Source of the DNA: an uncultured bacterium
GTDB taxonomy: Bacteria; Chloroflexota; UBA5177; JANWHV01
Assembly: GCA_963827235.1 (NCBI GenBank)
Contig: CAWHAE010000012.1
Location: 224,001-288,000 of the forward strand
Length of the DNA: 64,000 nt
Reading direction: 5' to 3'
The translations under genes were made by a program, and so were the position numbers. The notes below the pieces were generated by a model. It was given only the letters and a program-made list of their open reading frames with translations. It ran no database searches and was not told the DNA's origin. Numbering within the stretch: the stretch's first letter is position 1; every line of letters starts with the position of its first letter. Below, in pieces: positions 24,495 to 29,385 of this stretch.

Positions 24495-24872
24495 GAGCGG
24501 TCCGTTGCGAGCGGTGGCGGCGCTGCGACGTCGGACGAAGGTGGTGCCACGACCGATGTGCCTGCGACGACGGGAGTCGCGCGTGGCGCTGGTGACGTGC
24601 CGGCGGTTTCGCCCAGCGAAGGGTGTTTGCTCAAGCATCGTTAGCTTGACTACAATATGATGAATATGATGATCATGTCTAGCCCGCGTGCTCGTACTGC
24701 CTCTCTCACGTCATAGCGAGAATTGGGTCCCAACACACGACACCTTGACGCGTGAAGACTACGGGTCTCGCCGCCTTTCGGGCTGACGCCGAGAGGAGGA
24801 CCTCGGCCTCGGCGTCCACCACCGCATTCGACGACCTTCACGCAGGACCTCGCCGGCAGCCTGAGCCAGATC

Positions 24873-26189
24873 TTGGGCATGACCAGCGGCGGCGTGACCG
24901 GCAACTATCTGCGCGACGACGGCGGCAGCCTGTTGGCCAACGTGACCGGCGGCACGCGCACCTGGTACGGCACGGACACCCAGGGCAGCGTGCGGCAGAC
25001 GCTGGACGACGGCGGGAACTTCTTCGCTGCCCAGCCTTACGACCCCTATGGCATCCCGGAGACGAGCGGCCAGGTGGGCATCTTCGGCTACACCGGCGAG
25101 CTGCAGGACGGCACGACGAACGCCGAATACCTGCGTGCGCGATGGTACCAGCCGGGGACGGGCACGCTGCTGGGCGTGGACCCGGAGCTGGATAGCACGG
25201 GGCAGGCGTATGCGTATGCTGGGGATGACCCGGTGGATGGAAGCGATCCGAGCGGGGCTTGCTATACGGTAGTCGGAGCGAGAGTTCTTGATTTTTGGAA
25301 GAGTCTTGATGGCCGCGGTGCCTGCACCGCAAGCGATGAGAACGCCATTCGAACGTTCTCGTTTAGGCCGGATGTTGCAGTTACTCTAACGTCCTCGGAA
25401 CTCGCGCTGCTTACGGGCGATTCGTCAGCTGCCAGCGACCTTGAAGCGCAGAGGATTCTCACTGAACACGGCTTCGGATACCAAGTCAATGTGCCTCCGT
25501 GCTCTGGGTCGGGCAGCGCAAATGCACCAACCTCGCAACCCTCGCACGGATCCGCTGTGACGGCGGTGGCGGCGGTAGCAGTCGGCGTTGGGACTGCCGC
25601 TGGCGAAGAGGCGGACACTACAGGCGAAGGCTGCCTGTTAGGAGGGCTCTTCGGCTGCGTGGCTGGTGCAGTCGTTGGCGTCGCGATCGTGGTGCACACG
25701 ACCGTCAACATAGTCCGGTCGACCGGCGTCTCGACAACGGACACTTCGTCCCAAGACCAGCAGCGAACGTACCAGCGCTTTGTCGCAGACACGGGAGTAT
25801 TCGCGGATCGAGTAGAGGGTGGTGCAGCGCAGCGGGCGCGAGCCGATGCCATCCTCGTGAATCCGGGCTACGTTCTCTATGTGCCACAGGCTGTGGTGGA
25901 CGAGTTAGCCGATTCGCCTTCGGCAAGTCAGGCATTGCGCCTCGCCGGTGTTCCGGGAGGGGCCCAGATTAGAAGGATTGCGAACCCTCCACTCTTTGGT
26001 CTCGACTTACGGCAGGGAGCTATCATCTCGGATAACTTTGACCTAGCGGATGTCCGAGTTGTCGAGGCCGCCCGGCAACTCGGCATCCCGGTCCTTACAA
26101 CAGTCCATAGGCTTCAGAGCCAGGTCAAGGATGGCAACTTCCCGGAGCGGGTTGCTGCGTTTGGCCGGGTGCCGATCGTCTATGTTTAG
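24873..26189 (+). CDS. Orphan Rhs repeat-associated core with PIN-like C-terminal toxin domain
   Basis: DTQGSVR, YDPYG, FGYTGE, YLRARWY, YAYAGDDPVDGSDPSG; C-terminus FVADTGVF, YVPQAVVDEL, LADVRVVEAARQLGIPVLTT; no YD-repeat N-terminus. Confidence 0.85.
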   Translation: MGMTSGGVTGNYLRDDGGSLLANVTGGTRTWYGTDTQGSVRQTLDDGGNFFAAQPYDPYGIPETSGQVGIFGYTGELQDGTTNAEYLRARWYQPGTGTLLGVDPELDSTGQAYAYAGDDPVDGSDPSGACYTVVGARVLDFWKSLDGRGACTASDENAIRTFSFRPDVAVTLTSSELALLTGDSSAASDLEAQRILTEHGFGYQVNVPPCSGSGSANAPTSQPSHGSAVTAVAAVAVGVGTAAGEEADTTGEGCLLGGLFGCVAGAVVGVAIVVHTTVNIVRSTGVSTTDTSSQDQQRTYQRFVADTGVFADRVEGGAAQRARADAILVNPGYVLYVPQAVVDELADSPSASQALRLAGVPGGAQIRRIANPPLFGLDLRQGAIISDNFDLADVRVVEAARQLGIPVLTTVHRLQSQVKDGNFPERVAAFGRVPIVYV

Positions 26190-26271
26190 CCACGCAACGG
26201 CTATGCCTTGCGAGCAGTCGAGTAATGGAGAGACGTGAAGCGATTCTCTCACCAACACATTCCCGAGGGAG

Positions 26272-26814
26272 TTGACATTGGCAGCGAGCGCATTCCTAGA
26301 AGTCGACTTGTACTGCGTGCACTGCGGTTCGCTCCTTACCGATATGGTCTGGTTTCAATGGGGGTACTGTAGATCTCGTATTCCCGCCGACATATCGCTG
26401 TACCATCTTGGCGATTCCATACGGTGGCATGCGTGCCCGGACGGTGCAGTTCTACCTTGGACTCAGTTTGACAATGGTGCCAAGAGCTTTGGCAGCAATG
26501 TTGGTGACCCGAGCGTTACGAACCTCGTCGTTCTGGATCAAGCCCAGTTTGGGCCGGACAGACCCAACGACAGGAAAGTGTGCGGCAATTGCGGAGCCGC
26601 TATTGATGGGGCGGCTGTGGAGATCCGGGGCGGCGTCGTCGCCAAAGCATGGGTCTGGCGAGCGGGCGACTTCGACCCCCGTACGACCTACTACCTGCTA
26701 GCGGAGGACGGGCAGAGAACACCCGTGCCAGCATGGGAAGACCGTGCGATGGACCTCTTGGCGCCTGACTGCTCGCCGTGGCCGGGTGGGCAGCACGGAG
26801 CGGACGGACTCTAA
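26272..26814 (+). CDS. Hypothetical protein with two CxxC motifs, candidate immunity protein
   Basis: YCVHCG and VCGNCG; directly downstream of the Rhs toxin, GAGGGAG RBS, same reduced GC. Confidence 0.7.
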   Translation: MTLAASAFLEVDLYCVHCGSLLTDMVWFQWGYCRSRIPADISLYHLGDSIRWHACPDGAVLPWTQFDNGAKSFGSNVGDPSVTNLVVLDQAQFGPDRPNDRKVCGNCGAAIDGAAVEIRGGVVAKAWVWRAGDFDPRTTYYLLAEDGQRTPVPAWEDRAMDLLAPDCSPWPGGQHGADGL

Positions 26815-27048: not shown

Positions 27049-27655
27049 AAGCCTGGCCAGAACTACCACTACGGCTACCAGTATGACAAGCCGGGACTGG
27101 TGCCGCGGGCCGCGGAGAGCCTGGCCACGGCTTCCGGGACCGCGAGCGCCACCGTCACCGCGACCGGCACGCTCACGCCCACCGATACCGACACGCCGAT
27201 CCCGTCCGCGACCTCCACACCCACCGACACCGACACGCTGCCGCCGAGCGCGAGCAGCACGCCGAGCGCCACGCCCACCGGCGACGGCGCCGGGATGCCG
27301 GTCCTGCCCAACCCGGGCACGACACTGCAAGTCGCCGACACAGGCGGGCTCGCCGTGGAGCAGGCCGGCTTTGCCGAGGAGAGAGGGCGGAGGAGTGGCT
27401 ACACTCTTCCGCTACTCCACTACGGCAACCCGGAGACCAACTGCCCTCAATGATTTCGGCTACAACACCCTCAACAAGGGAAATGGGGGAAAAGGATACA
27501 ACAGTCATCCCACACATCAGAACTGTCATACATTCTCGTACATCGCCCTGAAGGTATTGACGCAGGGGCTTATCGCGAACCTGCCAAGTCCTAGCCACCA
27601 AGGAAACGAGGGCGTAGGTTGGGGTAACGAGGACACCTCTGGTACCACGTATTGA
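27049..27655 (+). pseudogene. Decayed second Rhs/toxin module (YD-like fragment, Thr/Pro linker, low-GC toxin-like remnant)
   Basis: NYHYGYQYDKPGL then ATVTATGTLTPTDTDTP...; GC drops near 27385; shifted frame carries YNSHPTHQNCHTF. Confidence 0.5.
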
Positions 27656-27943: not shown

Positions 27944-28198
27944 GTGAAAGTGGACAAGCTCAGCGTGTCGTTCGATCCCAATCTTGGCGATGCCGTCCGT
28001 GCTGCTGCCAAGCGGAGCGGCAGGGGTTTGTCGGGTTGGCTGGCCGAGGCTGCTGCAGCCCGGCTGCGCTCCGAGGCGTTGGCGGACTTCCTCGACAGCT
28101 GGGAGGCCGAGCACGGCGCGCTTACGGCCGAGGAACTCGCTCAAGCCACCGCCGAGCTAGGACTACCAGCCGTGCCAACAGCCGAACCGGCCGCATGA
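27944..28198 (+). CDS. Antitoxin (ribbon-helix-helix-like, VapB type)
   Basis: KLSVSFDP.L...VRAAA...G.GLSGWLAEAA; acidic tail WEAEHGALTAEEL; ATGA overlap with PIN gene. Confidence 0.85.
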   Translation: MKVDKLSVSFDPNLGDAVRAAAKRSGRGLSGWLAEAAAARLRSEALADFLDSWEAEHGALTAEELAQATAELGLPAVPTAEPAA

Positions 28199-28578
28199 GC
28201 GCGCTGGTGCTGGACGCCGGGGCCCTGGTGGCCGTGGATCGCAGTGATCGCGCGATGCTAGCACGCTTGCGGGTCGCAGAGCGCAGCGGCATGGAGCTGC
28301 GAAGCAACGGCGTGGTCGTCGCACAGGTCTGGCGAGACCCGAGCGGACGCCAGGCGATCCTAGCCCGCCTGCTTCGCGCTGTCGATGTCCAGCCGGTCGA
28401 CCTGCGGCTGGGCCAAGCGGCCGGTGTGCTCTTGGGGCGGGCACGCAGCGGTGACGCCGTTGACGGCAGCGTCGTAGCTATTGCCAAACCCGGTGACCGG
28501 ATCGTCACAAGCGACGCCGAAGACATCCGCGCCCTCATCGCCGTGTCCGGTCGCCCCATCTTGGTCGTGCCCTGCTGA
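28195..28578 (+). CDS. PIN-domain toxin (VapC type)
   Basis: LVLDAGAL, VVAQVWR, DAVDGSVV, IVTSDAEDI. Confidence 0.9.
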   Translation: MSALVLDAGALVAVDRSDRAMLARLRVAERSGMELRSNGVVVAQVWRDPSGRQAILARLLRAVDVQPVDLRLGQAAGVLLGRARSGDAVDGSVVAIAKPGDRIVTSDAEDIRALIAVSGRPILVVPC

Positions 28579-28622: not shown

Positions 28623-28973
28623 TTGAACCGCGGCGCGGCGTCGTATACGAGCATCGCCGGAGTGGATCAAGGGCAGGCCGTCCTCATCGCCGTCGAGCCC
28701 GCGCAGGTCGTGGTGGACTACCTGCCGGACGAAGATGGTATCGGGTTGTGGGTCAACGAGCTGGGCATCGGGGCGCACGGCGTCAATGTGGCGGAGGCAC
28801 GCCGCAATCTGGTCGGTGAAGTGCGCGCCTACGTCGCCAGCTTCCTGGGAGAGTTACCGGTCTATCTCACCTGGCCGGATCGCGCCCGGCTCGTGCCTCA
28901 CGTCCTGCGCCTGGCCGTGGCACGCAATGATGCCGAGCTGGCCCATCTGCTCTTCGACGCTCCAGTAGCCTAG
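28623..28973 (+). CDS. Antitoxin, HicB-like fold; possibly 5'-truncated
   Basis: DEDGIGLWVNELGIGAHGVNVAEARRNLVGEVRAY..WPDRARLVPHV; stop 1 nt before next start. Confidence 0.6.
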   Translation: MNRGAASYTSIAGVDQGQAVLIAVEPAQVVVDYLPDEDGIGLWVNELGIGAHGVNVAEARRNLVGEVRAYVASFLGELPVYLTWPDRARLVPHVLRLAVARNDAELAHLLFDAPVA

Positions 28974-28974
28974 C

Positions 28975-29385
28975 GTGGCCGAACGACACCCAACCTGGGG
29001 CGAACTGCGGCAATTCTGTGAACGCCAGAACCTTCGGCCCTCTCGAACCGATCACGACTTCTACGACAAAGTGCTTCCAGATGGCAGCACAGCAGGAACC
29101 AAGATCTCTCTCGGCGTGTCGGAGACCGACCCGATGCCGCCATCGTTGTGGTCGCGCATCCGGCGCCGCCGGCTTCGCCTTCGCGTGGAGAGCGAGTTCT
29201 GGCAAGGGCTGGAAGGCAAGGGCGTCGCACACGATGTCCCGCCCACGCCCGAGCGGACGCAGCAGCTGCCTCACCACCTCATCCGACATCTGCGCGACGA
29301 CCGGCATTGGTCGGAGGACCAGATCGCACTCGTTTCACGGGAAGAAGCGCAGCATCTACTCAATGCCTGGTTCAGCCGCGAATAG
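28975..29385 (+). CDS. HicA-like toxin with C-terminal helical extension
   Basis: TWGELRQFC, TDHDFYDKVLPDG..TKIS, LWSRI..L...EFW. Confidence 0.7.
   Translation: MAERHPTWGELRQFCERQNLRPSRTDHDFYDKVLPDGSTAGTKISLGVSETDPMPPSLWSRIRRRRLRLRVESEFWQGLEGKGVAHDVPPTPERTQQLPHHLIRHLRDDRHWSEDQIALVSREEAQHLLNAWFSRE

Follow-up and report, generated by a model that had tools for sequence, protein, structure and literature searches.

Rhs/YD polymorphic toxin systems, as set out in the relevant sections of Zhang et al. (2012; PMC3482391), combine a core that extends to a DPxG motif with a variable tip of low GC content and a gene in the immunity position; constant carriers exchange their tips, one tip can be common to several carrier types, toxin-immunity cassettes also occur as orphans, and the immunity types include HEAT and LRR proteins. 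According to the same sections, toxin-antitoxin and polymorphic toxin systems do not have metal-dependent PIN nucleases in common. PIN is named among the toxins of toxin-antitoxin systems (PMC6393860), and passages of the Menshen paper (PMC12065111) and of a 2026 BECR preprint (10.64898/2026.08.28.747851) treat PIN domains as components of a system directed against phages and not as delivered tips. Neither PIN nor VapC occurs in the main text of Nachmias et al. (bioRxiv 10.1101/2021.10.19.465003), whose supplements could list such a tip, of Danov et al. (PMC11297309) or of a 2023 review of nucleic-acid-targeting effectors (PMC9990079), and the word PIN is absent from the main text of Geller et al. 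(2021; PMC8213781). The main text of Matelska (2017) does not contain the terms RHS, polymorphic, secret-, immunity or Hint, and its supplement holds at least 12 matches to 'rhs', both of the matches listed being a fungal strain name. A full-text literature search outside subscription journals found no paper that describes a PIN tip.

The cassette described here resembles the Rhs/YD systems in the features listed above, but its tip and the CxxC protein encoded next to it are not covered by any Pfam or NCBIfam model, and it lies apart from its parent array. It departs from the type II VapBC arrangement, in which a free-standing cytoplasmic VapC follows an upstream gene for the DNA-binding antitoxin VapB: the PIN domain is the C-terminal part of presumably exported carriers, here fused to an Rhs core, and the partner is an unrelated, downstream four-cysteine protein with a predicted all-beta structure. 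The polymorphic toxin-immunity module is known; what is new is a predicted toxin fold reported as absent from such systems together with an unnamed partner family.

The window, i.e. the whole stretch of 64,000 nucleotides that was analysed, covers positions 224001-288000 of contig C12 of an 8.0-Mb genome. Core fragment, linker and tip are joined in a single open reading frame of 438 aa (24873-26189), whose in-frame starts are TTG at 24873, the first, and ATG at 24879, and which lacks the N-terminus of the carrier (Table 1). The Rhs-associated core model TIGR03696 scores 46.2 bits on this frame against a cut-off of 32.5, and the core terminates at 25256 in the PxxxxDPxG motif of Rhs polymorphic toxin cassettes, as an earlier sequence-only reading had proposed. 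The drop in GC which that reading had placed past the motif was also found: the core has a GC content of 0.688, against 0.60-0.61 for linker, tip and CxxC gene, and GC3 falls from 0.894 to 0.61-0.66. The hydrophobic segment it had pointed out was located in the linker, where it likely aids membrane crossing. Similar segments were seen by eye in several tips on contig C8, and an upstream hydrophobic segment (Kyte-Doolittle value above 1.6) is present in 27 of the 39 tip homologues with enough upstream sequence.

Table 1. Features of the cassette and its surroundings in the window
Feature	Position	Strand	Basis
Rhs core 3' fragment	24831..25256	+	TIGR03696 above cut-off; DNA identity to C8 cores; end = DPVDGSDPSG
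Pre-toxin linker with Gly/Ala/Val-rich hydrophobic segment (aa 252-281)	25257..25769	+	Kyte-Doolittle 19-mer maximum 2.42
PIN/VapC-like tip, 139 aa	25770..26189	+	D7, D13, E45, R57, D94, Q118, R127 agree with family; position 112 Val, family Asn
Candidate immunity gene, two CxxC motifs and FQWG motif, unnamed all-beta family	26272..26814	+	Likely start TTG 26278
Fragment of the Ser/Thr-rich linker that precedes the core in C8 Rhs genes; same family	27065..27385	+	83% identity to C8:27867-27524
Possible remnant of another toxin tip, like the end of the C8 head gene's tip	27470..27655	+	38% identity over 53 aa, E 0.002; weak

The origin of the cassette was traced through its core. Positions 24831-25260 are 83-87% identical at the DNA level, over 383-433 nt, to eight Rhs cores (and one short piece) on contig C8, and the beginning of this homology agrees with the cassette start at 24831 given earlier. 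The C8 cores bear unrelated tips, one of which is Tox-ART-HYD1, while the cores of the remaining Rhs clusters of the genome are just 33-43% identical (protein). The C8 region (G000 C8:5500-32300; L001, L002) is the parent Rhs array of about eight cassettes, several of whose tips have no Pfam match. Since both the core and the Ser/Thr-rich linker match this array and the tip, like the CxxC gene, is present in a single copy in the genome, the window locus is, judging from these alignments, a segment displaced from a C8-type array, made up of a core tail, the tip with its partner gene and the broken beginning of the cassette that came next. By its similarity, the fragment at 27065-27385 is the beginning of this second, broken cassette of the same Rhs family. 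No full-length gene able to receive the cassette is adjacent, and the head gene of C8, which has this core in common with the cassette, shows several changes of frame (28-32 kb) in this assembly that may reflect either real decay or assembly error. In four genus relatives (83-92% complete), the cassette was not found.

Further downstream in the same island, two small genes (27944-28578) resemble, on visual inspection, a pair of an RHH antitoxin and a PIN toxin that stands alone; they have no match in Pfam or NCBIfam, and the profile of the tip does not match them. They are followed at 28623-29385 by a second toxin-antitoxin-like pair, comprising a PHD_like antitoxin (E 1.3e-6) and an unnamed ORF of 136 aa.

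An exhaustive search of 1.84 billion representatives with the tip returned 58 matches, namely the tip itself, 55 homologues and two spurious repeat matches (P0049 and P0055), which were dropped. In all 55 homologues, which are proteins of 104-4117 aa, the domain is at the C-terminus, and several unrelated toxin carriers are among them. RHS_repeat was detected in five and eCIS_core in eight of the 47 homologues scanned with Pfam, TIGR03696 in four further homologues (9 scanned), an intein C-terminus directly ahead of the tip in one (a Hint carrier), and RCC1-repeat carriers at two loci. The eight proteins with an eCIS_core N-terminal to the tip have the architecture given for eCIS toxins, with an N-terminal DUF4157/eCIS core, by Geller et al. 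(2021; PMC8213781), whereas the window copy sits on Rhs; a search of the window genome for eCIS_core gave no match, but neither did the control. Tip exchange is directly visible in P0015 and its four cluster mates, which share 90-96% identity along about 2,100 aa and then continue, past DPSG, into four different tips, only one of which is this PIN. The earlier proposal of a swap-in cassette with a PIN domain as the tip of a polymorphic toxin is in line with these results, and on sequence grounds this PIN family forms C-terminal tips of polymorphic toxins that are swapped on constant carriers. One Rhs-borne member, from an Archangium gephyra MAG, carries the automatic UniRef label 'PIN domain-containing protein', so that the domain has not escaped automatic annotation.

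About nine short homologues of 163-227 aa (P0030, P0033, P0045, P0047, P0048, P0051, P0053, P0059 and P0062) consist of a hydrophobic N-terminus and the PIN domain only, without a known delivery domain, and may be membrane-anchored stand-alone toxins.

The PIN assignment of the tip had originally been made from the motifs VADT, VPQAVVDEL and LAD..VEAA..LG.PVLT, all of which are present, as is the TTV read at the last acidic position, and a PIN fold was expected of the last 140 aa. Structure prediction indeed yielded a PIN core fold, with VapC RNases such as VapC15 (PDB 4chg) as the nearest solved folds, although the similarity to any single VapC is moderate (TM about 0.5-0.58). The window tip does not match Pfam PIN, and its best homologue reaches 22.1 bits against a gathering threshold of 23.6. 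Three of the usual four acidic residues had been recognized beforehand, and in the model D7, E45 and D94 correspond to the Asp after strand 1, the acid after strand 2 and the acid at the start of the fourth helix; these positions are 91-100% conserved among homologues. The passages of Matelska (2017) on this point describe the Asp or Glu after strand 4 as near-invariant across PIN domains, whereas the tip family has Asn there (43 of 53 homologues; Q, D, S, G or K in the other 10, with Asp in only 2) and, unlike VapC, possesses its own D13, R57, Q118 and R127. D13 may supply the fourth acid of the site. The window copy reads TTV where the family reads TxN, and Val112 is peculiar to it among 54 sequences.

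This last difference bears on whether the window copy is still active. The family could be a real toxin-immunity pair while this copy is catalytically dead and decaying, with at most its immunity gene kept, and we regard this as an even bet. Such decay is suggested by the unique Val112, the absence of a carrier and, on sequence inspection, of a clear ribosome-binding site ahead of ATG 24879, the broken Rhs fragments downstream, the frameshifted head gene and the failure to find the cassette in the genus relatives. On the other hand, both reading frames are open, every other conserved residue listed for the tip in Table 1 is retained, and position 112 varies in the family anyway. Because of Val112 and the missing carrier, the odds that the window copy is active are about even; as arming it would require recombination through its core tail, it is likely silent, and its immunity gene may still be useful. 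Decay of this copy is compatible with the toxin-immunity reading of the family and differs from it for this locus only. Since TTV is peculiar to a carrier-less orphan, that reading is better supported for the family than as an active weapon here.

The tip could also be a PIN-fold protein with another chemistry or target, such as DNA cleavage or non-catalytic binding of nucleic acid or ribosomes through the invariant R57, Q118 and R127. The Asn in place of the fourth acid across the family, the occurrence of DNA-acting nucleases within the PIN-like superfamily, as mentioned in parts of Matelska (2017), and the moderate TM values are compatible with this idea. It is nevertheless rather improbable, given the conservation of the three canonical acidic positions, the fact that the solved VapC 7by2 likewise has Asn at the position equivalent to 112, and VapC RNases as the nearest folds.

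The gene behind the tip had been read as encoding a 180-aa protein with two CxxC motifs. The motifs were found at C15/C18 and C104/C107, the two pairs lying 85 residues apart, but the protein is probably slightly shorter, as TTG at 26278 (178 aa) is the more likely start because GAGGGAG lies just upstream and database record P0004 begins there. A profile of this family, which is rare in the genomes sampled (2 of 401 and 2 of 301), retrieves 24 proteins, and its cysteines are strictly kept (C15 and C18 in 25/25, C104 and C107 in 26/26 covering sequences). Structure prediction gives an all-beta protein (pLDDT 88) that matches no solved fold; the four cysteines likely hold a structural zinc. Precedent for an immunity protein with four cysteines and probable zinc binding that counters an RNase tip comes from the 4Cys-Imm zinc-finger family of S8-PTS (Li, Tan and Zhang 2022; PMC9424270), but there, by eye, only about 20 residues separate the CxxC pairs and the C-terminus is helical, and the partners are BECR toxins, not PIN.

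The linkage of this gene to the tip was evaluated at the 14 loci that scans returned, which represent 11 distinct tips, 10 of them usable as L028 ends inside the tip. As the sequence-only reading had anticipated for similar tips elsewhere, a CxxC homologue lies directly after the tip at 6 of these 10 loci (L019, L020, L023/24, L025, L026 and L029), with HMM E values of 3e-24 to 4e-62 and identities of 35% and 46% in two pairwise checks. At the other four loci the place is taken by HEAT repeats (two, L022 and L030), by an unknown 237-aa ORF (one) or by an LRR gene 485 nt away (one). In the reverse direction, the profile uncovered three new CxxC genes, of which only L035 is intact and lies immediately behind a tip, so that an immediately downstream gene travelling with the tip, as expected of a cognate partner, is found here as well; L034 and L037 are broken, and no tip is present within about 1.4 kb of either. 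On Rhs, eCIS-core and RCC1 carriers alike, the CxxC gene begins 10-30 nt after the toxin gene and is encoded on the same strand, indicating that the partner goes with the tip and not with the carrier. At L029, the PIN-tipped gene and its CxxC gene belong to a run of eCIS-core proteins.

Orphan copies are typical of immunity genes. The CxxC protein might alternatively accompany the tip as a chaperone, co-effector or general accessory without inhibiting it, as its absence at 4 of 10 loci, its presence without a tip in two cases and the lack of a fold match pointing to any function would allow. We consider this improbable, because the gene occupies the usual immunity position across three carrier types and copies without a tip are also common among immunity genes. 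A chance fusion, at this one locus, of an Rhs fragment with an ordinary VapC toxin-antitoxin gene, which the toxin-antitoxin-like pair 1.7 kb downstream might evoke, is very improbable and is refuted by the 55 C-terminal homologues on carriers and by the tip exchange in the P0015 cluster; moreover, the tip profile matches the tip alone in this genome (the downstream PIN-looking ORF has a probability of 0.5%), and no VapB-like gene lies upstream.

Taken together, our results suggest, with a probability of roughly 0.78 at the family level, that the orphan Rhs cassette encodes a delivered antibacterial toxin, whose tip is a predicted PIN-fold, metal-dependent RNase, and that the CxxC protein is its immunity protein. 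Such a family system is likely: its anatomy, family membership, carriers, tip swapping and linkage were observed and both folds are predicted, while export, cleavage, RNase activity, target, binding and zinc are what we infer. Points that count against it are the Asn in place of the fourth acid, the four loci that lack the CxxC gene, the two broken CxxC genes with no tip nearby, the short homologues with no known delivery domain and the frame changes in the C8 head gene. By analogy with related systems, the carrier of full-length members (Rhs cage, eCIS-core protein or Hint protein) would leave the cell, cleavage at DPxG or by the Hint domain would free the tip, and the hydrophobic segment would assist its passage across the target membrane. 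The site formed by D7, D13, E45, D94 and N112 would then cut RNA in a metal-dependent manner and block translation, the target most likely being tRNA or rRNA as for VapC, and binding of the CxxC protein to the tip would shield the producer and its kin. It is fairly probable that PIN/VapC nucleases, regarded so far as restricted to work inside the cell in toxin-antitoxin systems and RNA processing, have been recruited as the delivered warhead of Rhs, eCIS and other systems, with a rewired site (D13, and Asn where the fourth Asp would stand) and an immunity protein of their own that binds zinc and has a fold not yet solved. The comparative evidence, drawn from sequences, is strong, and the biochemical claims rest on inference. 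If true, this would fill a gap named by the main survey of the field, which holds PIN not to occur in polymorphic toxins, and the pair would offer a test case for how a toxin fold used inside the cell is turned into a weapon for export, which RNA it cuts and how a VapC-like site is blocked by an inhibitor other than VapB.

Several variants of the two proteins and of their surroundings were also noted. Two RCC1-repeat proteins of one Acidimicrobiales genome (L019:2-1699 and L035:1953-3437) bear the PIN tip, each followed by a CxxC gene; at L019:1709-2962 the CxxC domain is fused to a further region of 290 aa, and in P0070 it occurs as a tandem duplication. The window genome contains more Rhs clusters (G000 C15:98000-153229, C12:1-8000, C10:207000-213000 and C7:50350-59037; L003-L007), with PT-HINT, NucA/NucB and AHH tips as well as many unnamed ones, and in the C7 cluster the DPxG motif is followed by an extension of 1,700 aa that does not look like a toxin.
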